A DNA stretch of 32,000 bases. Source: Neisseria sp. MVDL19-042950. GTDB lineage: Bacteria > Pseudomonadota > Gammaproteobacteria > Burkholderiales > Neisseriaceae. The DNA is taken from positions 38,602 through 70,601 of the forward strand of contig NZ_JAUKWH010000005.1 in the NCBI RefSeq assembly GCF_030504625.1. The letters run 5' to 3'. The translations under genes and the position numbers were made by a program. Position 1 is the first letter of the stretch. Each line of letters starts with the position of its first letter. The notes under the pieces were generated by a model. That model was not told where the DNA came from, did no database searches, and worked only from the letters and a program-made list of their open reading frames with translations. Shown here one piece after another: positions 1-16,347 of the stretch.

Positions 1-1117
1 AATCTTCGGTTATCCGATTGGCCACAATCACATCAGATGCACGTTTGAATTCGTCTAAATCATTGATGACAGGCGAACGGAAAAAGTGCTCTTCTTGCAA
101 TACCGGTTCATAAACGATTACTTCGATTCCTTTTGCTTTCAAGCGCTTCATAATGCCTTGAATCGAAGATGCACGGAAATTGTCCGAACCGGCTTTCATC
201 ACCAAACGGTAAATCCCTACGGTTTTAGGTTGCCGACGTAAGATATCCTCAGCAATAAAATCTTTCCGAGTGCTGTTGGCCGCAACAATGGCGTGAATCA
301 TGTTTTGAGGGACATCTTGATAGTTTGCCAGTAGTTGCTTGGTATCTTTGGGCAGACAGTAACCGCCGTATCCAAAGCTCGGGTTGTTGTAATGTTTGCC
401 GATACGGGAATCTAAACATACACCGTCAATGATTTGTTGCGTATCCAAACCGTGTACTGCCGCATAGGTATCCAATTCATTGAAGTAAGCAACACGCATT
501 GCCAAGTAAGTATTGGCAAATAATTTTATTGCTTCGGCTTCGGTATTATCGGTAAGCAGTATCGGTGTATCTGGCTTTAATGAAGCATCGCGTAATAACT
601 CGGCAAATTTTTGTGCCCGCTCGGAACGCTCGCCAACTACAATTCTGTTTGGATACAGGTTGTCGTATAAGGCTTTGCCTTCTCTTAAGAATTCGGGAGA
701 AAAGATAATATTTTCAGTATTGAGTTCTTGTTTTAAATGTTCGGTAAATCCAACCGGTACGGTAGATTTAATAATAATTACAGCATTAGGATTAATGGCA
801 ATGGCATCTCGGGCAACGGATTCGACAGAACTTGTATTGAAATAATTGCTTTCAGGATCATAATCCGTAGGCGTTGAAATAATTACATAATCCGCATCAC
901 GATAGGCAGCTTGCTTATCCGATGTAGCATGAAAATTTAAAGATTTGGTGGCAAAATAATCTTCAATCTCTGCATCAACAATAGGAGATTTATATTGATT
1001 TAATAATGCAACTTTTTCTTGATCAATATCGAGGGCAATAACTTCATTATGTTGTGCGAGTAAGACGGAATTGGATAAACCAACGTAGCCTGAGCCTACA
1101 ATAGTAAATTTTTTCAT
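1..1117 (-). CDS. ugd: UDP-glucose 6-dehydrogenase (3' end runs off the left window edge; about 372 codons visible)
   Basis: My own translation of the minus strand from ATG at 1117 gives [32 protein letters not shown] (Rossmann GxGxxG). Further on it gives [22 protein letters not shown], the catalytic-Cys motif of the UDP-Glc/GDP-Man dehydrogenase family. It is missing from the ORF track because it stays open to the window edge. The 513..845 + ORF is its antisense shadow. Confidence 0.9.
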
Positions 1118-1156
1118 TTCAGCGTTTCTATATAGTTATTAATTAAAAAAGAAATC

Positions 1157-3262
1157 TTATTGTTCGAGGGTTAACTTAAAAACATACTTTCTGCTAGCAT
1201 CATCCGTGTCTTCCGGCGCATACTCATAAGAAAGCTTGGCTTGGCGTTTTAAGGAGGCATTAACCACTTTAAAGTGATTTATTTTTTGTAACCCCAGTTT
1301 TTTTATGGAAGTGTTTTCCCCATGTAATACACGGTTATAGCAAATTTTATTGATATGCTTAAATTCACCTACTTCGCTTAATTTAAGGTAAATATCATAG
1401 TCAACTGCATTGGTAATCGTTTCATCAAAGCCTTCAGTTAAATACCATGCGCGGGCAGAAAACATTCTAAAGTGATGAACAATCATTGCGGTTGTTAATT
1501 TTTCACGTGAAAATTCAGGCCAGTTATACCCCTTGGCAATTAATGAACCGTCAGGATTCACGTTTCGATTAGTAGTGTATACACAAGCTAGTTTTCGATT
1601 TTTTAAGAATTCGCTCAAACACAGCTCTACTGCATCCGGCTCCAAGTAATCATCAGAATCCAGCTGGCCGATATAAAATCCACGAGCCATTTTGACGGCC
1701 GCATTGGAGGCAGAAGCAATTCCGCCATTTTTCTTTGTCATAATCCGCACGCGTGGATTATTTCCATAATGACGATGTAAAACTTCCAGAGTGTTATCGG
1801 TAGAGCCGTCATCGCATATGCATACTTCCAAATCGGTAATCGTTTGATTCAATGCACTATCTACACATCTCACGATATATGACGAGCAGTTGTAGGCAGG
1901 AATGTAAATAGACACCAAAGGCACTTTATGTATCGTATCCGACAATAGTGAAGTAGGTTTACGATAGAAATACGGAACTTTTTCTTTTACGATATTAATC
2001 GTAATTTTTTTTCCTTCGGAACGATCTGTTTCGTTTTCTTTTCCGGGTGGTTCTTGATGGTAGGCCATGCCGCCATCTAATGATTGAAAGAAACAACCTT
2101 TTTTAAATAGACGATAACCGAATTCATTATCCTCTCCTCCCCAGTGGGTAAATTCCTCATCAAACCATCCCGCGATGTCTAACCATTTCCGTGCGAATGC
2201 AACGTTTCCTCCGCTGAAATAACGGAAAGGAGAATCGCACAAGCGTAGATTATCGGTTTTAGCAAAGTGCTCTAAACGCCAGTCTATTGAAGCAACGGCT
2301 GTCTGTGTACTACCCACGAGATTGTTGGTTTTGGTTTCCGGCAGGTTGGTTATAAGTTGATCGTTTGCCAAGAAATCTTTAGCTGATAATCCGTGTGTAT
2401 CTACATATTTTCTAGGGCCGACTAATGCCACATTATCATTTTGAAGAAGGCGATGGAGATAAGATTGAACCCAATGTGGATTCGGAGCCATATCGCAATC
2501 AAGAATGGAAACATAATCATACTTTGCAGTACGCAAGCCTAAGTTACGGGTTGCGCATAATTGATACCCGTTATCCGGTTGGCGTACATATTTGATATCT
2601 AATATGTTTTCATATTTCCTTACGACATCGACAATTTGTTGTTGGCTTCCGTCATCCGCAACAATTACTTCAAAAGCATAGTTGGTTTTTTGATTAACCA
2701 AACAGGCTAAAGTAATATCTAGAATCCAGTCGCGATTGAATGTCGGGATAATAATAGACAAACCTATATTGCTATTTTTTATAGATGTTGAAGCAATATG
2801 GTTATATCCGCTTCTTTTCTCTAGCCAGAGATAGTCATTGGGACCTTCAGGTAATGGGGCTAACTGTAAATTTTTAGGCCAATTGCTTGGAATAGGATTA
2901 ACTTTTTTATATTCGGCATCTTCCGATTTTCTTTGAGTTAACTGTTTCCATGCTTTAACTGAATCAGCGCGTTCTGATTCAGATAACTCTAAAAGCCCTT
3001 GATTATTCAAAAGAATTTTTGTTGCGATATCCAGAGTATCTAGGGCGGGCAAAATGTTATTTTGAACTTCGTTGGATGCACATATTGCCTTAGCTTCTTG
3101 GGATAAAGGCGCTATTTTTTTTAGAGCTTCATTACATTTTTTTATATGTAAAGAAACTATTTTTTCACCATATATGTTAGAAGCTTGTTTGAATAATAAT
3201 AAAGCATCTTGGAAATTCTGATTGTTGTAGCAAGCAATAGCTTGACTTAATATTTTTTCCAT
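1157..3262 (-). CDS. Bifunctional dual-GT2 polysaccharide synthase, KfoC / Pasteurella class II hyaluronan-chondroitin synthase type (capsule polymerase)
   Basis: 701 aa with two GT-A modules. Module 1 has IIIPTFNR, VADDGSQQ, ILDCDMAP and WGGEDNEFGYR. Module 2 has VSIYIPAYNCSSYIVRCVDSALNQTITDLEVCICDDGSTDNT, GQLDSDDYLEPDA and KHINKICYNRVLHGENTSIKKL. These strings and the length match what I recall of E. coli K4 KfoC (686 aa) and the PmCS/PmHAS catalytic core. ugd lies immediately downstream. Confidence 0.85.
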   Translation of the reverse strand: MEKILSQAIACYNNQNFQDALLLFKQASNIYGEKIVSLHIKKCNEALKKIAPLSQEAKAICASNEVQNNILPALDTLDIATKILLNNQGLLELSESERADSVKAWKQLTQRKSEDAEYKKVNPIPSNWPKNLQLAPLPEGPNDYLWLEKRSGYNHIASTSIKNSNIGLSIIIPTFNRDWILDITLACLVNQKTNYAFEVIVADDGSQQQIVDVVRKYENILDIKYVRQPDNGYQLCATRNLGLRTAKYDYVSILDCDMAPNPHWVQSYLHRLLQNDNVALVGPRKYVDTHGLSAKDFLANDQLITNLPETKTNNLVGSTQTAVASIDWRLEHFAKTDNLRLCDSPFRYFSGGNVAFARKWLDIAGWFDEEFTHWGGEDNEFGYRLFKKGCFFQSLDGGMAYHQEPPGKENETDRSEGKKITINIVKEKVPYFYRKPTSLLSDTIHKVPLVSIYIPAYNCSSYIVRCVDSALNQTITDLEVCICDDGSTDNTLEVLHRHYGNNPRVRIMTKKNGGIASASNAAVKMARGFYIGQLDSDDYLEPDAVELCLSEFLKNRKLACVYTTNRNVNPDGSLIAKGYNWPEFSREKLTTAMIVHHFRMFSARAWYLTEGFDETITNAVDYDIYLKLSEVGEFKHINKICYNRVLHGENTSIKKLGLQKINHFKVVNASLKRQAKLSYEYAPEDTDDASRKYVFKLTLEQ

Positions 3263-3389
3263 TTGAAAAGCCCCGTAAATTCTTAACTTTTTGAATAGAT
3301 AATTTTTAATATTTCAGCTGATAAATTTAAGAAAACTATCCTCAGCATGTTTTGAATTAACTATAGTATTTAGTTTGATTGTTTCAATT

Positions 3390-4982
3390 TTATTGTACGT
3401 GCGCCATTTGCTTTTCTTTTTTAAACTTTCTTGCAGTGTTGGCCAATACAAAAGGCATAGCAATCCAACGAAGGGGGTTACGGATATAAGTCAGTAAATT
3501 TTGCCCAAGCTGATAAGACAAATGTTTATGAATTCTGTTTATATCCGCAGCATCATTGTAAAAGTGTACTGGCGGCAAATTTTGTTCACATGTTTGCTGT
3601 TCTTTATTCACTCGTTTGGCCGTTCGCAATAATTCGAAAGGCATTTTTATACATCCGCTGAAACTTTTACTTTGCTGAATCATTACTGCGCCCAATTGAT
3701 AAGGCAGTTGGGTGCGCACACGATCAGCGGCTCCGTAGTACACGGGGCGTGCTGCCAAACGTTGTTTTTCTAAATATATTTTTTCCAACTCTTCTTGAAC
3801 AAAGTGGAGCTGTTCCAATAAAAGAGTGTTTTCTTTTTCTATAGAGGATTGGGCATTTTTTAGTTGTTGTAAATTTTGCTTATCCGCTTCAGCTTGTTGA
3901 GTAAATAAATTGATTTTTGATGCTAAATCTGATTTTTCTTTTTCCAATTTCAATTTTTCTTGCAGATGTACGTCATGCTTCTGCTTGTACTCATCAGCTA
4001 TTTTTCTGGTTGCTTTTAATTGCTCTTCAACTTGGTTGTAATGCAAGTGAATGGTTTCGCATTCTTTTTTAGTTGATTGTAATTGTTTGGAAAGTAGCGA
4101 AATATTGTCTTTATCGGCCAAACTGTTTGTCATGAGAGAGGCTATCTCTTGATGTTGCAGCATCATTGTTTGCCATGCGCCCATCACTAATTGGCGGTTG
4201 TTTTTCTTACATAAATCAGATTTCAAAGGTAAATTGGAATTATCTTGTAGCTTCTTATATAGCTCTATTACATCGACATTTTCATGAATTAGCGCATCAG
4301 CAAGATAAGCCGCCAAATTTGTTTGGCTGTTGTTTTCTGTATGCACAGAAAGCTCAAAGTTTTTGTCTTTTGAGGGTTTTAAGAGCTGTGGCTGTTTATG
4401 CGATTTATTTTCTTGGGTTACCCACTGCGCTCCTATATGGTGAGAAATTTTCTTCAAATATTTTTTAATAGAAAGCTGAGCCTGTTGGCTATGTACCAGC
4501 AAGCAACGGTTTTTATTATGCAGATAAAAGTTTAATAAACTTTCATTATAGGTAAGCCACTCTTGTAATTTTTGAGCAGTAACGCTTTCTGTCAGCATTT
4601 GAGGCGCACGCGTCAAGACGCTATTCGGTTGGTCGTAAACCAGAATAAAGTGCATGGAACTATCCATATCGCGCCAATAATTTAAAAGGCTGTTCGCTTC
4701 AGGATCTGCCCATCCCCAAAATGGTTGATCAATATTTCCAAGAAATAAATCCATAGCCAGGCCGTACCAAGCCGCTTCAATATGAAGTTGTTGTTCTGTT
4801 TCATAACGGCGAGGTGTATATAAAGAAGGCCGAGCAGACCTTGCCAATAATGAATCGATTTCTAAGGGAGACATTCCATCTCTTTTGGATGGCAATGCAT
4901 GACCCATACCATGGTTGTATAGAAGTTGCTCTACAGCTTGATAGTTAGAATGTTGATGTCCGACGATGAGAATTTTAGCCAT
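3390..4982 (-). CDS. Capsule-region protein of unknown function: N-terminal globular domain, long central coiled coil, duplicated C-terminal motif
   Basis: 530-aa ORF, first gene of the synthesis operon, with AGGGGA upstream of the ATG. Residues ~290-410 are heptad-like and K/E/Q/L-rich (KQKHDVHLQEKLKLEKEKSDLASKINLFTQQAEADKQNLQQLKNAQSSIEKENTLLLEQLHFVQEELEKIYLEKQRL). The C-terminus carries two copies of Y..AAD..R....L.YQLG...(12-14)...MPF.L..TA+. I recognise no family with certainty. Confidence 0.8.
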   Translation of the reverse strand: MAKILIVGHQHSNYQAVEQLLYNHGMGHALPSKRDGMSPLEIDSLLARSARPSLYTPRRYETEQQLHIEAAWYGLAMDLFLGNIDQPFWGWADPEANSLLNYWRDMDSSMHFILVYDQPNSVLTRAPQMLTESVTAQKLQEWLTYNESLLNFYLHNKNRCLLVHSQQAQLSIKKYLKKISHHIGAQWVTQENKSHKQPQLLKPSKDKNFELSVHTENNSQTNLAAYLADALIHENVDVIELYKKLQDNSNLPLKSDLCKKNNRQLVMGAWQTMMLQHQEIASLMTNSLADKDNISLLSKQLQSTKKECETIHLHYNQVEEQLKATRKIADEYKQKHDVHLQEKLKLEKEKSDLASKINLFTQQAEADKQNLQQLKNAQSSIEKENTLLLEQLHFVQEELEKIYLEKQRLAARPVYYGAADRVRTQLPYQLGAVMIQQSKSFSGCIKMPFELLRTAKRVNKEQQTCEQNLPPVHFYNDAADINRIHKHLSYQLGQNLLTYIRNPLRWIAMPFVLANTARKFKKEKQMAHVQ

Positions 4983-5389
4983 AATGTCCCCTTTAAAAGA
5001 AATAATCCCTTGGGTTAGTATTAAATTAATTATGTAAATATTAGTAAGTAAATTTTTGTAACGATAATCTTTGTTTTTTGAAAATACCTTAACTTTAATA
5101 AGCTTAACGCAATTTCAATAGCTATTTGTCATATTTATTAACATATGACATTAACATAAATACATGTTTTTATAACGTTAATTTACTTTTCCTTGATAAA
5201 TTTTTTCGATATTATATTAAAAAAATCTTCGCAGGTATAGTGCCACTTGGTATTATTTTTGAAATAAGTATGAATTATGATTTTTTCATTTAAAAATATG
5301 TTTTTAAAAACATATTTAAGAGTGTTACTAAATGCGCCAGATGTTAGAATGCTTTCGTTTGTAACGCTGCATAATGAAAAAGGGAACAG
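4983..5389. promoter_or_regulatory. AT-rich divergent control region between the capsule synthesis operon (-) and ctrABCD (+)
   Basis: 407 bp without ORFs between divergent starts. It contains a perfect 24-bp palindrome, AAATATGTTTTTAAAAACATATTT, at 5294-5317. It also contains an 8-8-8 inverted repeat, TGTCATAT-N8-ATATGACA, at 5127-5150. I could not place -35/-10 boxes confidently. Confidence 0.5.
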
Positions 5390-6589
5390 GTGAATTTCTT
5401 TATGAATTTGATAAATAAAAATATTTTTCGATTTTGGATTTGGGGGATCGGGATGGCATTGTTTTTGCCGGGATGTGGTGTCGTGCCTACTTCCGGACCA
5501 AGTTACAGTCAGGCAACAGCTTTGGGAAATTTGAAAGATGCTGAAAATTTACCGGTTGTAGAAGTAATTGATATAACGGATTCTGTGTTGGGGCATCTGC
5601 ATCATTCTGCGGAAAGCTACTCGTTTGCTGAGTTTTCAGCTAATAGTAAAGGTTATAACGATTTGGTTGATGCCGGCGATGTGTTGGATATTGCAATATG
5701 GGAAGCCCCTCCTGCGTTGTTGTTCGGCGGGGCACTTACATCACTGGGTTCGGGGAATGCACAATTAACAAAACTACCCGAACAAATGGTGGCTAATAAC
5801 GGAAAGATTACCGTCCCGTTTCTCGGTGCTTTGTATGTAAAAGGCAAAACACCGGAGGCTATTCAAAATGACATTGTTAACCGCCTGAGGAAAATGGCAA
5901 ATCAGCCGCAAGTGATGGTGCGGTTGGTTAAAAACAATTCTGCAAACGTTGTGGTGGTAAGGGCCGGCAGTAGTATCCGTATGCCGCTAACAGCACAAGG
6001 AGAAAGGGTTTTGGATGCTGTGGCGGCCATCGGGGGAACCACGGATGACATACGGGATGTTTCAGTTCAATTGACTCGAGGGGGAGTAGTAAAAACTATT
6101 GCATTTGAAACACTTACCACTAAACCTGCTGAAAATGTTTTATTACGCACGGGAGATGTTGTAGCCCTTCATTCCAAACCACTCAGTTTTACCGCTTTGG
6201 GCGCTGTTGGAAAAGTACAACAATTCCGCTTTTCAGCCAAAGGGATGAATTTGGGAGAGGCGCTCGGTCAGATGGGGGGCTTGCTGGATCGAAGAGCCAA
6301 TCCTAAGGGTGTATTTATATTCCGCTATCAGCCTTTATCCAAACTGTCGCAACCCGAACAAGGTAAATGGCTGGCTAAAGGGTATACCATGGATGCAAAT
6401 GTACCCACCGTATATCGCATAGATTTGCTAGATGCTAAATCTTTATTTTGGATGCAAAAATTTGCCATGCAAGACAAAGACATCGTTTATGTGGCAAATG
6501 CCCCGCTGGTTGAACTGCAAAAATTCCTACAGTTTGTTTTTTCTCCTGTTGTCAGTGGTGCCAGCAGTATCAACAATATAGCTAATTAA
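5390..6589 (+). CDS. ctrA: Capsule polysaccharide export outer-membrane lipoprotein CtrA (KpsD/Wza-like)
   Basis: 399 aa with an N-terminal lipobox (ALFLPGC). Its position and length match meningococcal CtrA, and it is followed by ctrBCD. The start is ambiguous: GTG at 5390 (AAGGGA upstream) or ATG at 5402. Confidence 0.88.
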   Translation: MNFFMNLINKNIFRFWIWGIGMALFLPGCGVVPTSGPSYSQATALGNLKDAENLPVVEVIDITDSVLGHLHHSAESYSFAEFSANSKGYNDLVDAGDVLDIAIWEAPPALLFGGALTSLGSGNAQLTKLPEQMVANNGKITVPFLGALYVKGKTPEAIQNDIVNRLRKMANQPQVMVRLVKNNSANVVVVRAGSSIRMPLTAQGERVLDAVAAIGGTTDDIRDVSVQLTRGGVVKTIAFETLTTKPAENVLLRTGDVVALHSKPLSFTALGAVGKVQQFRFSAKGMNLGEALGQMGGLLDRRANPKGVFIFRYQPLSKLSQPEQGKWLAKGYTMDANVPTVYRIDLLDAKSLFWMQKFAMQDKDIVYVANAPLVELQKFLQFVFSPVVSGASSINNIAN

Positions 6590-6601
6590 TGGAGCATTGA
6601 A

Positions 6602-7750
6602 ATGTCAGAACAGAAAAATACAGAGGCAACAAATGCTCAAAAAAAGAAAAAGCGCAGCTTTTTTACAAAATGGGGGGCTTTATTCTGGGGTACGGTAATT
6701 ATTCCTACCGTATGTTCTACGGTGTATTTTTCAGTTTGGGCGGCCGACCAATATATATCCGAATCCAGTTTTGTTGTGCGTTCCGCCCGTAATCAATCGG
6801 CGTTAAGCGGAATAGGCGCACTATTGCAAAATGTCGGGTTTTCCCGTTCGCAGGATGATACCTATACTGTGCGGGAATATATGGAATCGCGCACGGCGTT
6901 GGAAGCGTTGGAAAAAACGATTCCCGTGCGCGAATACTATGAACAGAAAGGCGATGTTTTCAGCCGCTTTAACGGGTTCGGCTTTTTTGATTCAAACGAG
7001 GCTTTCTATCAATACTATAAAAATAAGGTCAATATTGCTTTCGATCCGGTGTCGGGTATTTCGGTGCTGAGAGTGGAATCGTTTGATGCCAAAGAATCGC
7101 AGCAGATTAACGCCGCCTTGTTGAATAGGGCGGAAGAGTTAATCAACAAATTAAATGCCCGTGCGCGCAAAGATACGATCGAGCAGGCCGAACACGGTGT
7201 CGAAGCGGCCGAAGAACGGGTAAAAAATGCGGCAGGAAAAATGGCTGAGTACCGTACTCAAAACGGCATTTTTGATTTGAAAGCACAGTCCGAAGCACAG
7301 ATGGAGCTGGTGTCGAAATTGCAAGACGAGTTGATTGTGATTCAAACCCAGTTGGATCAAGTGCGGGCGGTAACGCCGGAAAACCCGCAAATTGCAGGTT
7401 TGCTGGCCCGCGAAAAAAGCCTCCGCCGCGAGATCAAAGATCAAATGCAGAAAATTTCCGGCACTTCGAATAGTTCCATTGCTACGCAAGCTGCCAACTA
7501 TCAGCGGTTATTTCTGGAAAATGAGCTGGCCGAAAAACAATTGGCTACTGCTTTGGTGTCATTGGAAAACGCTAAGTCCGAAGCCGATCGCAAGCAGTTG
7601 TATTTGGAAGTGGTGTCCCATCCGAACAGGCCGGACATGGCTTTGGAGCCCAAGCGTATCTACAATATTGTGGCAACATTTATTATCGGTTTGATTTTAT
7701 ACGGTATTTTGAGTTTATTGATTGCCAGTGTGAGAGAGCATAAAAACTGA
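6602..7750 (+). CDS. ctrB: Capsule export inner-membrane protein CtrB (KpsE family, PCP-3)
   Basis: 382 aa with an N-terminal TM (GALFWGTVIIPTVCSTVYFSVWA), a coiled-coil periplasmic region and a C-terminal TM (IVATFIIGLILYGILSLLIA). GGAG precedes the ATG. The stop overlaps the ctrC start (TGATG). Confidence 0.9.
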   Translation: MSEQKNTEATNAQKKKKRSFFTKWGALFWGTVIIPTVCSTVYFSVWAADQYISESSFVVRSARNQSALSGIGALLQNVGFSRSQDDTYTVREYMESRTALEALEKTIPVREYYEQKGDVFSRFNGFGFFDSNEAFYQYYKNKVNIAFDPVSGISVLRVESFDAKESQQINAALLNRAEELINKLNARARKDTIEQAEHGVEAAEERVKNAAGKMAEYRTQNGIFDLKAQSEAQMELVSKLQDELIVIQTQLDQVRAVTPENPQIAGLLAREKSLRREIKDQMQKISGTSNSSIATQAANYQRLFLENELAEKQLATALVSLENAKSEADRKQLYLEVVSHPNRPDMALEPKRIYNIVATFIIGLILYGILSLLIASVREHKN

Positions 7751-8547
7751 TGAAAGCGTTGCACGAAACTACGTTTAAACAATCGCTGGCCATTCAAATG
7801 CGGGTAATCGGTGCACTGTTGATGCGTGAAATCATTACCCGTTACGGGCGCAATAACATCGGTTTCCTGTGGCTGTTTATGGAACCTTTATTGCTTACGT
7901 TGCTTATCGTATTGGTGTGGAAGTTTGTACGCGCAGATCAATTTTCGGCATTGGATATTGTTGCCTTTGTGCTTACAGGTTACCCCATGGCCATGATGTG
8001 GCGTAATGCTTCCAACCGTGCCATCGGAGCGATTGCCGCCAATGCCAGCTTGCTGTACCACAGAAATGTGCGCGTGCTGGATACGGTTGTAACACGCATA
8101 TTGTTGGAAGTGGCAGGGGCAACCGTTGCCCAAATCATGATTATGGCGGTGTTGATAGCGATACGTTGGATCGAAATGCCGGCTGATATTTTCTATATGC
8201 TGCTCGCTTGGTTGCTGATGGCCATGTTTGCTTTTGGGCTGGGGCTGATTATTTGTGCCGTTGCCTTCAAATTCGATTCGTTCGGCAAGTTGTGGGGAAC
8301 GTTGAGTTTCATCATGCTGCCTTTGTCGGGAGCATTCTTTTTTGTGTCGGTTATACCCCAACCGATGCAAAAATATATTTTGTGGATACCTATGGTGCAT
8401 GGTACCGAAATGTTCCGGCACGGGTATTTCGGTCATTCGGTTATCACTTATGAAAATCCGTGGTTTTTGATTTTGTGCAATATCGTGATGCTGTTGCTGG
8501 GTTTGGCCATGATCAGCAAGTTCAGTAAAGGAGTGGAGCCGCAATGA
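7750..8547 (+). CDS. ctrC: Capsule export ABC transporter permease CtrC (KpsM family)
   Basis: 265 aa, multi-TM ABC-2 type. [43 protein letters not shown]... closely matches my recollection of meningococcal CtrC. There is an ATGA overlap with ctrD. Confidence 0.92.
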
Positions 8548-9194
8548 TTTCAGTCGAACATGTATCTAAGCGGTATCGGACGCGCGAAGGCTGGAAAACA
8601 GTTTTAAGCGGTATCGATTTCAAACTCGAAAAAGGCGAAAAAATCGGTATTTTAGGCCGAAACGGGGCGGGTAAATCCACACTGATACGCTTGATCAGCG
8701 GTGTGGAACCGCCCACCGAAGGAGAGATTAAACGCACGATGAGTATTTCTTGGCCGTTGGCGTTCAGCGGGGCGTTTCAAGGCAGCCTTACCGGTATGGA
8801 TAATTTGCGTTTTATCTGTCGGATTTATAACGTAGATATGGATTACGTGAAGGCGTTTACCGAAGAGTTTTCCGAGCTGGGACAATATCTGTATGAGCCG
8901 GTAAAACGCTATTCTTCGGGCATGAAAGCGCGGCTGGCCTTTGCATTGTCGCTGGCGGTCGAGTTTGACTGCTATCTGATTGACGAAGTGATTGCGGTGG
9001 GCGACTCGCGTTTTTCCGAAAAATGCCGCTACGAACTGTTTGAAAGGCGTAAAGACCGCTCGATAATTTTGGTTTCCCACAACCATAGCGCAATGAAGCA
9101 ATATTGCGATAACGCGATGGTGTTGGAAGCGGGGAAGCTGTATAAGTTCGATAATATGGACGAAGCGTATCAATACTATAACGCCTGTCTGTAA
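8544..9194 (+). CDS. ctrD: Capsule export ABC transporter ATPase CtrD (KpsT family)
   Basis: 216 aa with Walker [10 protein letters not shown], signature [12 protein letters not shown] and Walker B CYLIDE. It is nearly colinear with meningococcal CtrD as I recall it. Confidence 0.95.
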
Positions 9195-9211
9195 GCCGCC
9201 GTATTTGTTTG

Positions 9212-9242
9212 GAGGCCGTCTGAAATCTTTTCAGACGGCCTC
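9212..9242 (+). terminator. Inverted DUS pair hairpin downstream of ctrD
   Basis: GAGGCCGTCTGAAA-tct-TTTCAGACGGCCTC forms a perfect 14-bp stem 18 nt after the ctrD stop. Confidence 0.65.
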
Positions 9243-9257
9243 AGTTATAATACCCGC

Positions 9258-11426
9258 ATGATCTATCACCACATCGCCCTCAATATTCCCATTTCAGACG
9301 GCCTCTTAACCTACGGCCACCCGACCGCCTTGCCCAAAGGCTGTCGGGTGGTGGTGCCGTTTCGCGGCAAACCCGTTGCCGGTGTGGTGTGGGCGGGCGG
9401 CGTAACGCCGGAGATTGACGCGGCGAAAATCCTGCCGGTTCAGACGGCCTTTACCGACGAACCGCTGTTTCCCGAAAGCTGGTGCAAGCTGCTGGAGTTC
9501 ACTTCGCGCTATTACCATTATCCGCTCGGGCAGGCCGTGTTTACCGCGCTGCCTTTGGGCTTGAAAGAGACCAAGCCCGTCGAAACACCGCAGCCGTCGC
9601 AGTTTTATGCTTTGAACGAAACAGGTAAAGCGCAAACCCCGCCGCCGGAGCGTTTCCACAAAAAACACGCCTTATGGCAGGCTTTGTTTTCAGACGGCCT
9701 CAGCATGGCGGCCTTGAAACACATCCACAACCAAGCACCGAAGCTGCTGCAAGAGTGGATGGAAAACGGCTGGATACGCACCACCCAAGCCGCCGCGCCC
9801 GTGTCGAGGCCGTCTGAACACCGATTAAACGCCGAGCAGCAAGCCGCCGCGCAAGCCGTTCAGACGGCCTCCGATACCTTCAAACCCTTCCTGCTCTACG
9901 GCATCACCGGCAGCGGCAAAACCGAAGTCTATTTCGACGTGATGGCCAAAGTGCTGGCGGCGGGCAGGCAAGTGCTGTTTCTGCTGCCCGAAATCAACCT
10001 CACACCGCAACTGCTCAAGCGCGTGGAAGCCCGTTTTGCCGACGTGCCGACCGCCGTGCTGCACAGCCAAACCGCGTCCGGCAAACGCACCCAAGACTAC
10101 CTGCGCGCCATGCTCGGGCAGGCCAAACTGATTATCGGCACGCGGCTGGCCGTGTTCACCCCGCTGCCCGATTTGGGCTTGGTGGTGGTGGACGAAGAGC
10201 ACGATACCTCGTTCAAACAAGACAACGAACTGCGCTACCAAGCCCGCGATTTGGCCGTTTGGCGCGCACGGCAAAGCAGTTGCCCCATCGTGCTCGGCAG
10301 CGCCACCCCCAGTTTGGAAAGCTGGCACAAAGCGCAAACCGGCGCGTACCAACTGCTCGAACTGACCGAGCGCGCCCATTCCGCCGCCCAACTGCCGCAA
10401 GTCGATATCTTAGACGTGCGCCGCCTGCCGCTCGACAACGGCTTCTCGCCGCAAGCCCTGAAACTGCTCAAAACCAACCACGAACAAGGCGGCATGTCGC
10501 TGGTGTATCTCAACCGCCGCGGTTTCGCGCCCGCCCTGTTTTGCGGGGACTGCGGCCACACCTTCGGCTGCCCCCGCTGTTCCGCCAAAATGGTGCTGCA
10601 CCAACGCGCCCGCCAACTGCGCTGCCACCATTGTGATTTCAGACGGCCCGTACCCTACAAATGCCCCGAATGCGGCAACCAAGACCTTACCGCCGTCGGC
10701 CACGGCACCCAACGCGTCGAAGAAACCCTGCGCAACTTCATCCCGCAAGCCAAAGTCGCCCGCGTCGACCGCGACAGCACCGCCCACAAAAACGACTGGG
10801 CCGATTTATACCAACGCATCGCCGCCAACGACATCGACATCCTCGTCGGCACCCAAATGCTCGCCAAAGGCCACGACTTCGCACGGCTGAACCTCGTGAT
10901 CGTATTAAACGCCGACGGCAGCCTGTACAGCGCCGACTTCCGCGCCCCCGAAAGACTGTTTGCCGAACTGATGCAGGTTTCCGGCCGGGCAGGGCGCGCC
11001 GAAGCAGCCGGCAAAGTGCTTATCCAAACCCAACTGCCAGAACACCCCGTATTCGCTGCCGTAAAAGCGCAAAACTACCGCATCTTCGCCGAAAACGAGC
11101 TGAACGAACGGCAAACATTCAATATGCCGCCCTTCGGTTTTCAGACGGCCATCCGCGCCGATGCCGTCAAAATCGACGAAGCCGTGCAGTTTCTTAACGA
11201 CATCCAAGCCGTTACCCAACCGCTGCTGCCCGAAACCGTATCCGCCTTCGGCCCCGTACCCATGCTGATGGCGCGGCTGGCCGAACGCGAACGCGCCCAA
11301 GTGTTTTTAGAATCCGCCTCCCGCAAAGACCTGCACCACGCCGTGAGCCTGTGGGTGCAAGTGTTGCAGCAGTACCGCGACGGCAAAGTAAGATGGTCGG
11401 TGGATATCGACCCGCAAGAGATGTGA
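9258..11426 (+). CDS. priA: Primosomal replication-restart helicase PriA (protein N')
   Basis: 722 aa with Walker A GITGSGKTEVY and DEEHD. It has the Cys-rich zinc module CGDCGHTFGCPRCSAKMVLHQRARQLRCHHCDFRRPVPYKCPECGN, and GTQMLAKGHDF. Confidence 0.95.
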   Translation: MIYHHIALNIPISDGLLTYGHPTALPKGCRVVVPFRGKPVAGVVWAGGVTPEIDAAKILPVQTAFTDEPLFPESWCKLLEFTSRYYHYPLGQAVFTALPLGLKETKPVETPQPSQFYALNETGKAQTPPPERFHKKHALWQALFSDGLSMAALKHIHNQAPKLLQEWMENGWIRTTQAAAPVSRPSEHRLNAEQQAAAQAVQTASDTFKPFLLYGITGSGKTEVYFDVMAKVLAAGRQVLFLLPEINLTPQLLKRVEARFADVPTAVLHSQTASGKRTQDYLRAMLGQAKLIIGTRLAVFTPLPDLGLVVVDEEHDTSFKQDNELRYQARDLAVWRARQSSCPIVLGSATPSLESWHKAQTGAYQLLELTERAHSAAQLPQVDILDVRRLPLDNGFSPQALKLLKTNHEQGGMSLVYLNRRGFAPALFCGDCGHTFGCPRCSAKMVLHQRARQLRCHHCDFRRPVPYKCPECGNQDLTAVGHGTQRVEETLRNFIPQAKVARVDRDSTAHKNDWADLYQRIAANDIDILVGTQMLAKGHDFARLNLVIVLNADGSLYSADFRAPERLFAELMQVSGRAGRAEAAGKVLIQTQLPEHPVFAAVKAQNYRIFAENELNERQTFNMPPFGFQTAIRADAVKIDEAVQFLNDIQAVTQPLLPETVSAFGPVPMLMARLAERERAQVFLESASRKDLHHAVSLWVQVLQQYRDGKVRWSVDIDPQEM

Positions 11427-11462
11427 AGAGGCCGTCTGAAAACTGTTTTTCAGACGGCCTCT
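11427..11462. terminator. Inverted DUS pair hairpin shared by convergent priA (+) and the repeat-protein gene (-)
   Basis: AGAGGCCGTCTGAAAA-ctgt-TTTTCAGACGGCCTCT forms a perfect 16-bp stem. It starts 1 nt after the priA stop and ends 15 nt before the stop of the convergent gene. Confidence 0.7.
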
Positions 11463-11476
11463 AAGGTTATGAATGG

Positions 11477-13070
11477 TTAGCTTTTAGAAGAAGATTCGGG
11501 AAAAGCCTCTTTAAACCATGCTTGGAATTCGGGGGTGTGGCGGATGTTGTCCAAACCGTCGTCTTGTTCAATATGTTCTTTGTTGGGGAAATGATTTGAA
11601 TGTTGTGCAAGACGTAATTGTTTGATTGCTTCGACTGTATTTCCTTCCAAGGCACACAGGCAGGCATGGTTATAGGCAAAGTTTTCTTGATGTTGAGGAT
11701 ATTTATTTAAGAATCCATCAATCAAATTGCGGGCTTGTTGCAATTTGATTTGTGCTTCGGCAGGTTGATTGTCTTTTAAAATATGAAGTTCATGTAGTAA
11801 AGCGCTTAACCAGTTATAAGCGGCCTCATGCATGTCGGGCTTGATAGTCAATGCTTGCCGGTATTTTTCTCCTGCGTCACGCCATTTTTCCAAGGCTGTC
11901 GCGGTATCGCCTTGTGTGGCCAAAACCTGCGCTTCGTCAGCTAAGGCCTTTCCCCAGTTATCGGCGACTTCGTGTATGTCAGGCTCAATAGCCAATGCTT
12001 GTTGGAATTTTACTCCTGCGTCAACGCCATTTTTCCAATGCCATTACGGTATCGCCCTGTATAGCCAAAGCCTGTGCTTCTTCAGCTAAAGCACTTCCCC
12101 AGTTATTGGCTGCTGGATAAAAGTCATTTTTAATTTGTAAAGCCAATTCGTATTTTTCTCCTGCGCTTTGCCATTTATCGAATGCTGCTGAAGTTTGATT
12201 TTGTGTGTATAAATTTCGTGCTTCCATATATAAGGCACGTCCCCAATTATAGGCAGCGATATATTTTCTAGGATTAGAGCGTAATGTTTCTTGGTGGTAT
12301 TGTTCGACTTTGGGGAGCCAATAATTCTGTTGTTTGCGATTACCTTTTTCGTATAAATAACAAGCGTGAAATCCTGCGTTGAAGTTGGCTTGTTCATCTC
12401 TACTATCTTGTAGAAGAACAGCTTGCCAAGCATAAAGAGCGTTTTCATTATCTTGATAATTTTGGCTTCTTTTCGCTTGATCTGAAAGCAAAATAGCTTG
12501 GGCGCGTAGTTGTTCGATAAGGGGAATTTCTTCATTTTTAGACAATTGTTTTGCTTTTTCAATGCTGCTTGTTTGTGCTTCCTGATTTTGTTCTTTGGGG
12601 TTCCATTGCTTCATTTCTGCAATGTCTTGAGTATATTTTTCAGCACTGTCGTAATGTTCTTTGATTTTTTCTACATATTCTTTAGCCTGTTCTAGGTCTT
12701 GTTCTAATTGACGTTTATCTTTTTTATAAAGTAAAAGTGGAATGGCAACGCCTATGGCTGCAATAACAATGCCTGCCACGGCAAAGACTATGGTAATAAA
12801 GGTCATCCACCAGTTGAGGTTTTGTTGCTGGTTATCCATAACCTGCATACGCAATGCTGAAATATTGTCTTGCAGCATTTCAGCTTGTGAGGCAATCAGA
12901 TTGTTTATTTTCGGTTGTTTATCCGTTGTGGTTTCCACTGTTTTTGTTATGGAGGAGTTGCTTGCCCCCGTTTGTTTCGGATCGGCTAATGTATCGGCAG
13001 TCGCGGAAAAGGCAAACGGCAAGCTGAGTATCAAAGCTGAAAGGAAGGATTGAAAAAAGCGGTTGTTCAT
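11477..13070 (-). pseudogene. Signal-peptide / TM / coiled-coil / TPR-like repeat protein, split by a 1-bp insertion (ORFs 12021..13070 and 11477..11995)
   Basis: The upstream ORF ends ...NNWGSALAEEAQALAIQGDTVMALEKWR*. The same 48-aa repeat unit continues in the next frame (DAGVKFQQALAIEPDIHEVADNWGKALADEAQVLATQGDTATALEKWRDAGEKY...). At DNA level, cctgcgtcAAcgccatttttcca at 12014-12036 compares with the paralogous repeat cctgcgtcAcgccatttttcca at 11871-11892. Removing one A at 12023/12024 gives one 530-aa ORF. Confidence 0.7.
11825..12257 (-). repeat. Three consecutive diverged 144-bp (48-aa) coding repeats inside the repeat-protein gene
   Basis: The units are AAYNWGRALYMEARNLYTQNQTSAAFDKWQSAGEKYELALQIKNDFYP, AANNWGSALAEEAQALAIQGDTVMALEKWR(D)AGVKFQQALAIEPDIHE and VADNWGKALADEAQVLATQGDTATALEKWRDAGEKYRQALTIKPDMHE. 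The frameshift lies inside the middle unit. Confidence 0.75.
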
Positions 13071-13326: not shown

Positions 13327-14290
13327 TCAGGGAGCCTGATAACGTTCCGACTGAAAAGTAGTTTTGTTTTTGTAAAGATTAAAGGCGATAACCGCCAGTT
13401 TTCGCATGATCGCCGTGATAATGACTTTTGACAGTTTCTTCTTTTGCTTAAGACGTTTTGTAAATTCGGGAAAGTATCCGCGAGCATAGGCGACCATAGC
13501 AGGCATGAATAATGCGGCACGCAAACGCCTATTCCCGAAGCGGGTTATCCTACTTTTGCCGTTTACACTGATTCCCGACTGCCTTTGATGCGGACTTAAT
13601 CCGGCAAAGGCGACAAATTGACCGGCGTTTTTAAATGTACCGGATAAGAGATGGTTGGTTAGAATGGCGGCGGTTAACTTGCCAATCGAAGGTATGGTTT
13701 GAAGGCCGTCTGAAACGTCTTTCAGTTCAGGATACTGCATGATTTTTTTCCATTTCAGCTCTCACCAAAGAAAGCTGTTTTTGGATATGGACGATGTTTT
13801 CACGATGAATTTGTTTGACAAATTCATCTTTGGCCGCCGAAAGCCTGTTCTTTTCTGCCGTCTGACTTTCAATAAGCTGTTCCTGTAATGCCAAAACACG
13901 CTTTAAGCGGTAATGGGCTTTTGATACGGGTTTCCTCAAGGGCAAATCTTTCGGCAAAGCAGTACTGCAATATTCGGCAATGAGTTTTGCATCTTGCTTA
14001 TCGGTTTTGGTTCGAGCAAAGCGGCTTTTGGCATAGTCGCTTATTTTCAGAGGATTAATGACGGATATTCTGTAATCTTTGCCCATGTAATCGGCAACAT
14101 CTTCAAAGTAGTTTCCGGTTGCTTCCATACAAATATGGATATCGGAACAATTGAAATTATCCAACCAGCCTTTCAGCTTTTCAAAGCCTTTTATGCCATT
14201 CTCGAATTTCGCTGTTTTAACAACACCGTCTATCAGCAATGCTGCATCAAAGGTTTTATGCGATATATCCAATCCCAAAGCGTTTCTCAT
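13327..14290 (-). pseudogene. IS110-family (Piv/pivNM-irg-like, DEDD) recombinase, interrupted by a +1 frameshift in an A7 tract
   Basis: The N-terminal ORF 13727..14290 reads MRNALGLDISHKTFDAAL...ICMEATGNYFEDVADY...TDKQDAKLIAEYC, the DEDD_Tnp_IS110 type. The C-terminal ORF 13327..13740 reads IPSIGKLTAAILTNHL...FAGLSPHQRQSGISVNGKSRITRFGNRRLRAALFMPA, the Transposase_20 type. The two overlap at GGAAAAAAATCATG (T7 on the + strand at 13743-13749). With A6, a single 320-aa ORF reads ...VRAEMEKIMQYPELKDVSDGLQTIPSIGK. Confidence 0.85.
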
Positions 14291-14713
14291 TATTACCCTT
14301 ACTATTCAGATTCATACTGACGTATGTTCTTTGATGCTACCCAATCTTTATAAACAAGAAATCCCCCGCTTCAATCTCAAGTACAAGCTATATCGCTTTG
14401 GCCGTTGTCGAAGTCGAGGGATACGGTTTGAATTACGTCTAATCCAAACCTTTAAGCCGTCTGTTTCCAAACGGCTTAAAACTTTGAATTAGCATTTTAT
14501 TGCTTTGAATTGTTGATTTTGCTTAAAAATTAAGCGATTTTTGGGGTTTTAGCGAGCTCGCGGGAGAACGCCGGAAGCAACAAAATTGCCGAAAAGCAAA
14601 CTGGCGGGAGGTCCCGCACCCCGAGACCATTTTTTTATTGCCGCCCCCTCTAAAAACATGCCGTGCTATCCGAACATACGCGAGGAGGGTTCGACAATAA
14701 AAAAATGGCCAAA

Positions 14714-14881
14714 TCAAAGATTAACAAAATACCAAATAACAACAGACAAAATAAAACCAATGCAAATACCAAGCAAAGGATAACCAAACCACTCTTTTAA
14801 AATATATTTAGTACCTTTTTTCCTATGAACATGAATAATTGCATAAAGAATAAGACCTGCAATAACAATCTCTAAAACCAT
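14714..14881 (-). CDS. Small two-TM hypothetical protein immediately after zot (below ORF-track size cutoff)
   Basis: My own translation gives MVLEIVIAGLILYAIIHVHRKKGTKYILKEWFGYPLLGICIGFILSVVIWYFVNL (55 aa). The ATG lies 8 nt after the zot stop. It has two hydrophobic helices separated by a basic loop. No family recognised. Confidence 0.4.
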   Translation of the reverse strand: MVLEIVIAGLILYAIIHVHRKKGTKYILKEWFGYPLLGICIGFILSVVIWYFVNL

Positions 14882-14888
14882 TCGGCAC

Positions 14889-16046: not shown

Positions 16047-16067
16047 TTGTGTTTTCCTTTTCCGTTA

Positions 16068-16346
16068 TTATTTGCGCTGAATACTGGCCGATAGCTTGGA
16101 CATGGCTTTAAGGGATGCGACAAAAGCAAAGGTGCCGAATATCCAATTGAGCACTACGCCAATTCCTACTATATAGGCTAAATTCAATGCATCGCTTGGG
16201 ATTCCGCCTATCTGTTCCTGCACTTTCGAAATGAAATAGCCTTGCAATTCATTAAGGCCGACATACGACACGAAAGACAACCCCAATGCGGCAATCACAC
16301 GACCGGCGACATTCATCAATACGCCTGTTATCAATGAACCCCACAT
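16068..16346 (-). CDS. Small integral membrane protein, pVI-like minor coat (DUF2523-like position)
   Basis: 92 aa with three hydrophobic segments. It lies between the pIII-like gene and zot, as in other inoviruses. Confidence 0.6.
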   Translation of the reverse strand: MWGSLITGVLMNVAGRVIAALGLSFVSYVGLNELQGYFISKVQEQIGGIPSDALNLAYIVGIGVVLNWIFGTFAFVASLKAMSKLSASIQRK

Positions 16347-16347
16347 A

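Follow-up and report, generated by a model that had tools for sequence, protein, structure and literature searches.

A KfiB/HyaE-family (DUF8374) capsule protein in a Neisseria KpsMT-type locus: predicted sulfotransferase-like head, coiled coil, double-repeat tail and probable scaffold role

The gene described here lies at positions 3390 to 4982, on the minus strand, of a 32,000-nucleotide stretch of DNA from Neisseria sp. MVDL19-042950 (contig NZ_JAUKWH010000005.1, positions 38,602 to 70,601), which we refer to as the window. Sequence comparisons indicated that its 530-amino-acid product almost certainly belongs to the KfiB/HyaE family, whose members are accessory proteins of capsule systems. 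It is an ordinary member of this already known family. Since the 1990s, KfiB and HyaE have been known as the products of required or helpful capsule genes with no molecular mechanism attached to them. By analogy with these relatives, we consider it probable that the 530-residue protein is a coiled-coil scaffold that couples the capsule polymerase to the exporter. The gene and the parts of its product are as follows.

3390..4982, minus strand: KfiB/HyaE-family (DUF8374) capsule accessory gene, 530 amino acids plus stop (open reading frame, translation, BLASTP)
4413..4982, minus strand: residues 1-190, N-terminal domain and probable pseudoenzyme, with an alpha/beta fold like that of sulfotransferases (AlphaFold2, Foldseek)
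4941..4961, minus strand: P-loop-like GHQHSNY, residues 8-14, at the site of the sulfotransferase 5'-phosphosulfate loop (family alignment)
4701..4718, minus strand: invariant WGWADP, residues 89-94, terminating a core strand (114-sequence alignment)
4608..4652, minus strand: HFILVYDQPNSVLTR, residues 111-125, strand-turn-helix matching the sulfotransferase 3'-phosphate motif, without its Arg (profile alignment)
4104..4412, minus strand: residues 191-293, disordered loop followed by a helical subdomain (AlphaFold2, alignments)
3756..4103, minus strand: coiled coil, residues 294-409, 116 amino acids, one helix (AlphaFold2, heptad analysis)
3756..3839, minus strand: coiled-coil end motif EKENTLLLEQLHFVQEELEKIYLEKQRL, residues 382-409 (family alignments)
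3585..3749, minus strand: C-terminal repeat 1 of DUF8374, residues 412-466 (repeat hidden Markov model [HMM], E 8.5e-22)
3405..3575, minus strand: C-terminal repeat 2 of DUF8374, residues 470-526 (repeat HMM, E 2.5e-21)

The minus strand holds a sole long open reading frame (ORF) at 3390-4982, with an ATG at 4982 and a stop codon at 3390-3392, and the purine-rich sequence AAAGGGGA lies 4 nucleotides upstream of the ATG. All of the peptide strings quoted in a first-pass annotation of the window were present in the translation. In BLASTP comparisons, E. coli K5 KfiB was 30% identical to the protein over residues 1-524 (E 2e-65); the KfiB reference was the 562-residue protein WP_001038329.1, which is encoded between kfiA and kfiC on the Nissle 1917 chromosome. 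A second E. coli protein, WP_001033434.1, which RefSeq labels "sulfotransferase family protein," was 31% identical over the full length (E 1e-82). In tblastn searches, proteins named "protein HyaE" from Bisgaard Taxon 45 (31% identity, residues 1-522, E 1e-81) and [Haemophilus] felis (30% identity, E 4e-80) were recovered. The homology to HyaE rests on these two NCBI-named proteins, and P. multocida HyaE, FcbE, and DcbE are linked to them by name.

A search of a large protein collection yielded 292 relatives, and all 120 of those listed carried PF28160, which is DUF8374. The 96%-identical protein P0001 carried a precomputed PF28160 match, as did fragments of 54 to 98 amino acids that consisted of the C-terminal repeats alone. 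The 530-residue protein had no match in a Pfam copy that predates PF28160 and none among PDB sequences. Full-length homology to KfiB, the HyaE-named homologs, and the presence of DUF8374 in the listed relatives thus place the protein in the KfiB/HyaE family. It also has the family architecture, in which the head is conserved, the coiled coil carries the QLHxVQEELE motif, and the C-terminal repeat is doubled, as seen in alignments, the structural model, heptad analysis, and repeat HMM matches. The family itself is large and spread over several bacterial phyla: a profile of the head domain matched 2164 clusters at 50% identity (E <= 1e-3), and in nearly all of the 150 best matches the head was at the N terminus of a protein that was mostly 400 to 830 amino acids long. 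When the repeat alignment was used to search a large protein database, 60 candidates were found, mostly short fragments, a yield that left the full range of module-bearing proteins unmapped. One of the fragments was "kfiB protein, partial [Escherichia coli]," and its contig led to the KfiB of Nissle 1917. A search of E. coli genomes for kfiD by similarity to ugd found only the housekeeping ugd.

The first-pass annotation had called the protein uncharacterized. That description did not survive the comparisons, since KfiB is a full-length homolog for which genetic and localization data have been published (PMC4366286). The idea of a sulfotransferase, also raised there, was not new either, as PMC13171606 and RefSeq already use sulfotransferase labels for family members.

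An AlphaFold2 model of the 530-residue protein was built on a 114-sequence alignment and had a mean predicted local distance difference test score (pLDDT) of 81.9. Residues 1-180, for which pLDDT was mostly above 90, were modeled as a domain that starts with a beta1-loop-alpha1 unit and has a parallel sheet. When the model was compared with the PDB using Foldseek, the top 29 matches were all sulfotransferases, followed by nucleotide monophosphate kinases. The best match was TPST2 (3ap3; E 4.2e-5, target template modeling score [TM-score] 0.49), and further matches included the olefin-synthase and curacin sulfotransferase domains (4gox and 4gbm) and NDST1 (1nst). The predicted head domain thus has the P-loop, nucleotide-kinase-like fold of sulfotransferases. 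At the sequence level, a whole-protein profile matched only coiled-coil noise among PDB sequences; a head-only profile reached TPST1, constructs of which were the sole PDB sequences matched (E 0.07). Even at E 10, no Sulfotransfer model of Pfam or NCBIfam matched the 530-residue protein, and the result was the same for KfiB and for four other members.

The residues with which sulfotransferases hold their cofactor, 3'-phosphoadenosine 5'-phosphosulfate (PAPS), were examined in the alignment. The consensus of the first loop in the family is G-H-P-x-S-G-Y, in which G8 and H9 are invariant and S12 is found in 113 of the 114 sequences; in the GHQHSNY of the window protein, Q10 and N13 replace the family-typical P and G. 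In the PKSGTT-type loop of sulfotransferases, the catalytic Lys or Arg sits at the x position. The six commonest residues at position 11 of the family are instead Q (48 members), L (17), A (16), D (8), S (6), and H (5), the last being that of the window protein; none of the six is Lys or Arg, and together they account for 100 of the 114 members. At position 13, the fetched loci had G, N, H, Y, A, E, D, R, K, S, Q, or P, a breadth of variation that fits poorly with a loop for gripping phosphate.

A similar picture emerged at the other two sites. W89, W91, and D93 of WGWADP are invariant in the 114 sequences, and D93-P94 aligns with an Asp-Pro of TPST1. The equivalent Asp-Pro in TPST2 is directly preceded by Lys158; the family has Ala or Ser before D93, and the window protein has A92. 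The head-profile alignment pairs HFILVYDQP with the TPST1 strand KFLLMVRDGRASVHS (E 0.07), and the family string "afvlvYdeP" is paired with "KFLLMVRDG" of TPST1, so that the 3'-phosphate Arg of TPST1 falls on Y116/D117. Y116 is found in 111 and D117 in 100 of the 114 sequences, and P119 is invariant.

About 20 head residues are invariant in the 114 sequences, including G8, H9, W72, D78, N83, W89, W91, D93, W103, P119, and W142, and R159 is at least 90% conserved. Those of the invariant residues that could be placed are located where core strands end, which in sulfotransferases is the site of the cofactor cleft. We read the head as probably a pseudoenzyme in which the cleft is retained for binding, and a carbohydrate or a protein could be the partner of a cleft with so many Trp, Asp, and Asn residues. 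Sulfation by this family appears unlikely because the basic residues that bind PAPS are missing family-wide. Beyond the head, residues 194-216 had a pLDDT below 50, and helices were predicted across residues 218-288. This helical subdomain carries conserved YxxLQ..ANLP and AW motifs; Y242 is invariant in the 114 sequences, and L245, Q246, P252, and W270 are invariant in a 22-sequence alignment and at least 90% conserved in the 114.

Residues 294-409 contain neither Pro nor Gly and were predicted by AlphaFold2 to form a single unbroken helix. Their hydrophobicity had a period-3.5 power of 90.5, compared to 10.6 +/- 10.1 for shuffled sequences, a value that none of 2000 shuffles reached. The best heptad register was constant in nearly all overlapping 28-residue windows over residues 279-404, the exception being 321-348. 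Across the family, the stretch from head to tail varies from 73 to 438 amino acids, and it always terminates in a motif with the consensus EENELLLxQLHQVQEELERYYLENQRL, which is present in one to four copies per member. In this motif, E384, N385, L387-L389, Q391, L392, H393, and V395-E400 are at least 90% conserved. Among the ORFs of 82 related loci and the window, the motif was confined to homologs of the 530-residue protein.

The tail that follows is a tandem duplication. Local alignment of repeat 1 with repeat 2 gave a score of 78, compared to 19.3 +/- 3.6 for shuffled sequences (z = 16). Residues 412-530 have a net charge of +11, and no transmembrane segment was found in them. When the C-terminal domain was modeled in isolation, it formed a helix bundle with a pLDDT of 92.8 and a predicted TM-score (pTM) of 0.81; on this model, the tail is a folded double-repeat domain rather than a single amphipathic helix. 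A Foldseek search of the isolated domain against the PDB found no structural neighbor (best E 4.7), and the module, as modeled, is a novel fold. Repeat 1 matched positions 7-56 of NCBIfam NF058596 (E 9.4e-6), and in E. coli WP_001033434.1 both repeats matched, over positions 7-123 (E 1.4e-8). These matches covered the module only and scored far under the 600-bit family cut-off. The double repeat thus corresponds to the first ~120 positions of NF058596, a family of Campylobacter O-methyl phosphoramidate transferases, and DUF8374 is also present in a Campylobacter coli GT2 (glycosyltransferase family 2) fragment. In the 82 loci and the window, the repeat was confined to homologs of the 530-residue protein, save for one extra ORF in locus L041. 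Either fusion to capsule enzymes or carriage on a coiled-coil stalk would fit a module that serves for localization or docking. In eight loci (L049, L054, L067, L069, L074, L075, L078, and L079), the homolog had the head and the coiled-coil motif, and the repeat was undetected; these homologs may be truncated, divergent, or cut by a contig end.

Much of the anatomy proposed in the first-pass annotation was borne out by these results. It had described a sulfotransferase-like head with a degenerate cofactor loop, a coiled coil of ~120 residues, and a duplicated tail motif, and the 29 leading Foldseek matches, the lack of Lys or Arg among the six commonest residues at position 11, the 116-residue helix with its heptad signal, and the detection of both ~55-residue copies by the family repeat HMM agreed with it. 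A resemblance to the 3'-phosphate motif was retained in part: the strand aligned with that of TPST1 (at E 0.07 only), but the Arg is replaced by Y116/D117. An active PAPS-dependent transferase, which the annotation had treated with caution, became unlikely, given that the six commonest residues at position 11 include neither Lys nor Arg and that the position of the 3'-phosphate Arg is Tyr/Asp.

The surroundings of the gene in the window were those of a capsule locus, as listed below.

1..1115, minus strand: UDP-glucose 6-dehydrogenase (KfiD/HyaC equivalent), 3' end cut by the window edge (translation, DNA and protein identity)
1157..3262, minus strand: K4CP/KfoC-type bifunctional polymerase with two GT2 domains, 701 amino acids (Pfam, phmmer)
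4983..5389, no strand: AT-rich intergenic region separating the divergent serotype-specific and export operons (sequence reading)
5390..9194, plus strand: export operon, kpsD 5390-6589, kpsE 6602-7750, kpsM 7750-8547, kpsT 8544-9194 (Pfam, TIGR01010, NF050053)

The 701-residue polymerase contains two GT2 domains and a Glyco_transf_7C domain (Pfam), matched the E. coli K4 "Chondroitin synthase" of PDB entries 2z86 and 2z87 (E 8e-286, phmmer), and was 62% identical to an E. coli KfoC-like glycosyltransferase. With a K4CP-like polymerase, the Neisseria host may therefore make a chondroitin-like capsule, and the capsule specified in the window is probably of the chondroitin type. A 2018 survey of capsule genes in non-pathogenic Neisseria made no mention of chondroitin, HyaE, or KfiB (PMC6202450). 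The window ugd shared ~69% DNA identity with E. coli ugd and 85% protein identity with the Ugd of Neisseria sp. Dent CA1/247. The export operon had Pfam matches to Poly_export/SLBB, ABC2_membrane, and ABC_tran; its KpsE scored 512.7 bits against the TIGR01010 (BexC/CtrB/KpsE) cut-off of 437.5, and its KpsM matched NF050053 (E 1.4e-27). This operon is divergent from the KfiB/HyaE-type gene, and priA is next after kpsT. Promoter-like matches in the intergenic region at 4983-5389 were weak and fewer than in shuffled sequence.

The KfiB/HyaE-type gene thus sits between kpsDEMT and the polymerase and ugd genes, that is, in the serotype-specific region of a KpsMT-type locus, and the 530-residue protein serves an ATP-binding cassette (ABC) transporter-dependent, group 2-like KpsMT capsule system. 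The suggestion that the gene occupies the hyaE-equivalent position beside a glycosaminoglycan synthase was correct, as the match of the adjoining polymerase to 2z86 and the naming of homologs as HyaE by NCBI indicate.

The capsule genes also differed from the rest of the window in composition. The GC content was 41% in 1-9200 and 51% elsewhere. The core of the Neisseria DNA uptake sequence (DUS), GCCGTCTGAA, occurred 32 times in the window and not once within 1-9200. Most of the copies (28 of 32) had the AG-DUS form AGGCCGTCTGAA, which is the uptake-sequence dialect of this genome, and the first pair was at 9215/9230, right after kpsT. On account of its low GC content and its lack of uptake sequences, the island at 1-9200 looks to have been imported horizontally, and recently.

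Homologs of the 530-residue protein were next considered in their own neighborhoods. Within 10 kb of the homolog in the 82 related loci, KpsT was found in 58, KpsE in 57, and KpsM in 54, mostly directly upstream. The closest named homolog (54% identity) was from Neisseria sp. Dent CA1/247, in which the gene order is KfiB-like, KfiC-like, KfiA-like, Ugd, a further GT2, kpsC, and kpsS (L080, 10001-16862). Its KfiC homolog was 43% identical to K5 KfiC and its KfiA homolog 58% identical to K5 KfiA, so that this cluster is a heparosan-type set, in contrast to the chondroitin-type polymerase of the window. Across ten loci, the identity of the 530-residue protein dropped in step with that of KpsT, KpsM, KpsE, and KpsD, unlike that of the glycosyltransferase, as the values below illustrate.

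Neisseria sp. Dent CA1/247: 530-residue protein, 54%; KpsT, 91%
Uruburuella suis: 530-residue protein, 44%; KpsT, 87%
Pasteurellaceae: 530-residue protein, 30-31%; KpsT, 73-81%
E. coli: 530-residue protein, 30-31%; KpsT, 46%

The window polymerase, by comparison, was 62-68% identical to polymerases of Pasteurellaceae, E. coli, and even Chlorobium. This pattern of identities fits a protein that would be adapted to the export side of the system.

Two further features of the related loci concerned the partners of the protein. In two Campylobacteraceae metagenome-assembled genomes, an entire KfiB-like protein is fused in one ORF to a double-GT2 enzyme (L023, 3952-7977, 1342 amino acids; L022, 10001-13675, at least 1225 amino acids and cut by the contig end). 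In 47 of the 82 loci, a second coiled-coil protein is encoded directly downstream of the KfiB/HyaE homolog, as in L081 (12055-14100) and L008 (11795-13600). This protein has a conserved N-terminal domain of ~216 amino acids with a GxGxG motif and no Pfam match; in Chlorobium it has an additional C-terminal Methyltransf_21 (FkbM-type) domain. Neither the window nor the loci of Pasteurellaceae, Moraxella, and E. coli K5 contain it. A "putative methyltransferase with coiled-coil regions" has been described in E. coli group 3 clusters (PMC13171606), and the neighbor in the 47 loci is probably that protein. Presence of the canonical GHPxSG loop showed a weak trend with presence of this methyltransferase-like neighbor (odds ratio 3.4, p 0.04, uncorrected for phylogeny), from which we drew no conclusion. 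Two family members occur ~15 kb apart on the betaproteobacterial contig JAGUXX010000101.1 (L004 and L046). In Actinobacillus ureae ATCC 25976 (L047, 10001-11811), the HyaE-like gene is in two ORFs: the one with the head and coil ends at 11245, and the repeats are in a separate frame at 11197-11811. The split points to a frameshift or a pseudogene.

Published experiments on KfiB and HyaE bear on what the protein does. Deletions of kfiB were acapsular (PMC4366286), and a clean kfiB deletion was acapsular and complementable (bioRxiv 10.64898/2026.07.28.741313). Membrane localization of KfiC was lost without KfiB (Hodson 2000, as cited in PMC4366286), and KpsM and KpsT have been reported as interaction partners of KfiB (Hu 2024, cited by the review PMC12834895). 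[quoted passage not shown] In a reconstituted P. multocida system minus HyaE, hyaluronan was still displayed, and it was more diffuse and formed fewer puncta (PMC11041684). KfiB has been termed "the K5 putative sulfotransferase" (PMC13171606).

Taken with the family membership, the domain anatomy, the loss of the sulfotransferase signature, and the linkage to kpsMTE and the polymerase that we established here, these data led us to favor a scaffold between polymerase and exporter. Of the three roles that the first-pass annotation had offered, a scaffold for the synthase-exporter complex was the best supported. The requirement for capsule formation, the membrane localization of KfiC, the contacts with KpsM and KpsT, and the altered capsule distribution would apply to the window protein by analogy with KfiB and HyaE; the division of roles among domains and the oligomeric state are what we infer. 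The long coiled coil would make the protein an elongated, probably parallel oligomer. The basic DUF8374 end would lie at the inner membrane or on KpsMT. At the other end, the sulfotransferase-fold head, having lost its PAPS-binding and catalytic residues, would keep a conserved cleft rich in Trp, Asp, and Asn for a partner, which could be the glycosyltransferase or the nascent Kdo-linked glycolipid or polymer. The net effect would be that the polymerase is recruited to and stabilized beside the exporter, which would couple synthesis to export. Two observations in the related loci favor the scaffold: the ORFs in which a KfiB-like protein is fused to a double-GT2 enzyme are a physical link to the polymerase, and the partner differs between members (the heparosan KfiC/KfiA pair or a K4CP-type enzyme), which argues for independence from any one polymerase.

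Several points weigh against a scaffold. The interaction of KfiB with KpsM and KpsT comes second-hand, from the review PMC12834895. According to a title cited in that review, KfiA and KfiC, aided by chaperones, were sufficient for heparosan production in E. coli BL21, and HyaE was dispensable for surface hyaluronan in the reconstituted system (PMC11041684). A scaffold would therefore be helpful, not universally essential. The functional data all come from relatives that are 30-31% identical to the 530-residue protein, and membrane binding by DUF8374 is proposed only from its charge and from the proteins that carry it. The match in identity with KpsMTED could reflect host phylogeny together with polymerase swapping. 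Finally, with ~20 invariant residues among 114 sequences, the head is conserved far beyond the needs of a passive spacer, and it may therefore have an enzymatic or ligand-binding activity.

Other roles can be set against the scaffold. It is unlikely that the protein is only a folding or stability chaperone of the glycosyltransferase, with no membrane docking or coupling to export. KfiB has been termed a "stabilisator," general chaperones can replace KfiB in the expression of KfiC in BL21 (according to a title cited in PMC12834895), and fusions to GT2 enzymes exist in some genomes. A chaperone would, however, have no need of a coiled coil exceeding 100 residues or of the conserved, basic domain at the C terminus, which unrelated capsule-modifying enzymes also carry; moreover, the linkage to kpsMTE holds whatever the polymerase, contacts with KpsM and KpsT are reported in the same review, and capsule without HyaE was mislocalized, not absent (PMC11041684). 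A transition (priming) transferase that adds the first sugar onto the poly-Kdo linker is improbable in the extreme: recombinant KfiB, although proposed as a candidate for this step, failed to elongate Kdo acceptors (PMC11666461), and in P. multocida the essential unknown component was HyaB, not HyaE (PMC11041684). A gene in the serotype-specific region that adjoins the polymerase and has no assigned enzymatic role would be a natural place to look for such an enzyme, but neither Pfam nor Foldseek found a glycosyltransferase or TagF-like fold, and close relatives serve polymers with differing first sugars. We also regard as highly improbable a genuine PAPS-dependent sulfotransferase acting on the capsule polymer or linker. 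K5 heparosan, K4 chondroitin, and P. multocida hyaluronan are established as unsulfated, and no family-associated polymer is known to be sulfated. The fold points toward such an enzyme, in that Foldseek places sulfotransferases first and TPST1 constructs are the sole PDB sequence matches, and so do the RefSeq name of E. coli members and the "putative sulfotransferase" used for kfiB in a 2026 paper (PMC13171606). Against it are the residue at the catalytic Lys/Arg position, which is Q, L, A, D, S, or H in the family and His here; Asp117/Tyr116 opposite the 3'-phosphate Arg of TPST1; Ala or Ser (A92) where Lys158 of TPST2 sits; the absence of a Sulfotransfer Pfam match at E 10; and a similarity to TPST1 that reaches only E 0.07.

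A more elaborate alternative is an active chain terminator or ruler of the WbdD kind, in which the head would modify either the non-reducing or the lipid-linked end of the polymer with a donor other than PAPS and the length of the coil would set the length of the chain. The layout matches, with an enzyme-fold head, a head-to-tail stretch that varies from 73 to 438 amino acids, and a basic C-terminal tail, and ~20 invariant head residues are at the strand ends that in sulfotransferases line the cofactor cleft. In the 47 of 82 loci with a GxGxG coiled-coil neighbor (FkbM-type methyltransferase in Chlorobium), the pair would resemble the two activities of WbdD. Nevertheless, kinase and methyltransferase domains were not found in the protein (Pfam), its P-loop is without a conserved Lys or Arg, and Gly13 is replaced in many lineages, the window protein included. 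The methyltransferase-like partner is missing from the window, Pasteurellaceae, Moraxella, and E. coli K5. No terminal cap is known to have been reported for K5, K4, or hyaluronan capsules, which counts against a terminator. In addition, kfiB is highly polymorphic in E. coli (PMC13171606), a point in favor of a ruler, but KpsMT is thought to recognize the lipid anchor, and hyaluronan export persists without HyaE (both PMC11041684). We therefore think a ruler decidedly unlikely. In a broader form, the Trp-rich head cleft would still carry out chemistry or specific recognition at one polymer end, and the KfiB/HyaE proteins would supply the chain-length or termination device that is missing from KpsMT capsules, with the coil as ruler and the methyltransferase-like neighbor acting with it in about half of the loci; we would hold this very unlikely.

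The remainder of the window contained three other items. The first is a filamentous Neisseria-type prophage on the minus strand at 13327-20990, with a split IS110-family transposase (13327-13740 and 13727-14290), Zot (14889-16046), a TspB-like protein (16348-18306), and a Rep_trans initiator (19437-20990); no DUS occurs between 13705 and 21277, in the prophage region. An ORF at 24267-25022 (minus strand), between cysS and obg, matched Tae4, the domain of a type VI secretion amidase effector, at E 4.6e-25, and there are no secretion-system genes in the window. A 349-residue ORF at 12021-13070 (minus strand) is without a significant family match, and its weak matches look like low-complexity or membrane-segment similarity.

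The domain picture that emerges for the KfiB/HyaE family, namely, a sulfotransferase-fold head without cofactor residues, a variable spacer, and a module of novel fold, leads to testable hypotheses for how polymerization is coupled to export. Such coupling is relevant where engineered bacteria are used to produce heparosan, chondroitin, and hyaluronan. With regard to host mimicry, it is of some interest that a Neisseria of the commensal type has a chondroitin-type capsule island. The interest that remains is at the level of the family, in the conserved pseudo-sulfotransferase cleft, the novel-fold C-terminal module, and the methyltransferase-like neighbor (which is absent in the window).

The 530-residue protein was then compared with named systems. 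Neisseria meningitidis CtrG (NMB0065) was set beside it by size only, and the sizes differ, with ctrG at 957 bp (~318 amino acids). The O-methyl phosphoramidate transferases of Campylobacter jejuni (NF058596, the CJJ81176_1420 family) have DUF8374 at the N terminus, fused directly to the enzyme, whereas the 530-residue protein has it at the C terminus, behind the coiled coil. PAPS-dependent sulfotransferases are alike in the fold of the head as a whole (E 4e-5 to 1e-3 and target TM-scores of 0.42-0.49 in Foldseek), with a matching strand/P-loop/helix and strand/turn/helix order. They differ in that the sequence similarity is insignificant (best E 0.07) and in that the basic residues that bind the cofactor are absent throughout the KfiB/HyaE family.

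WbdD of E. coli O9a, to which the first-pass annotation had likened the protein, also has a globular head and a long coiled coil, together with a basic, membrane-proximal C terminus to which the basic tail of the 530-residue protein may correspond, and it also belongs to an ABC transporter-dependent glycan pathway. The likeness is one of overall layout. The head of WbdD, however, is a kinase and a methyltransferase, neither of which is present in the 530-residue protein (Pfam), which has a sulfotransferase-like fold in their place; the two share no sequence relationship, and the exporter is Wzm/Wzt for WbdD and KpsMT with KpsE and KpsD here.

The closest parallels were with the glycosaminoglycan capsule loci of E. 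coli and Pasteurellaceae. KfiB of E. coli K5 shares the GHPxS loop, WGWADP, a coiled coil ending in QLHxVQEqLE, and two YxLG..(M/L)PF repeats, and its gene likewise belongs to the serotype-specific part of a KpsMT capsule locus that includes Ugd. It serves two monofunctional heparosan transferases (KfiA and KfiC), whereas the partner in the window is one bifunctional K4CP-type polymerase. In the K5 locus, region 3 (kpsMT) is upstream on the same strand, with kfiA between, whereas the export operon of the window is divergent. The gene for E. coli WP_001033434.1 (584 amino acids, strain ECONIH1) is the next one upstream of a KfoC-like polymerase gene, the product of which shares 62% identity with the window polymerase, in a locus that additionally has galE, a pyruvyl transferase, and a second GT2. 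The protein is the probable KfoB equivalent. HyaE-type loci of Pasteurellaceae share the gene order of a HyaE-like gene, a two-domain GT2 synthase, and Ugd, by kpsDEMT and kpsSC homologs, and their synthases are 63-68% identical to the window polymerase. Their HyaE-type proteins, at 569 to 622 amino acids, have a basic insertion of ~30 residues in the N-terminal domain and longer coiled coils. The phenotype of a P. multocida HyaE deletion, a diffuse capsule (PMC11041684), fits a scaffold.

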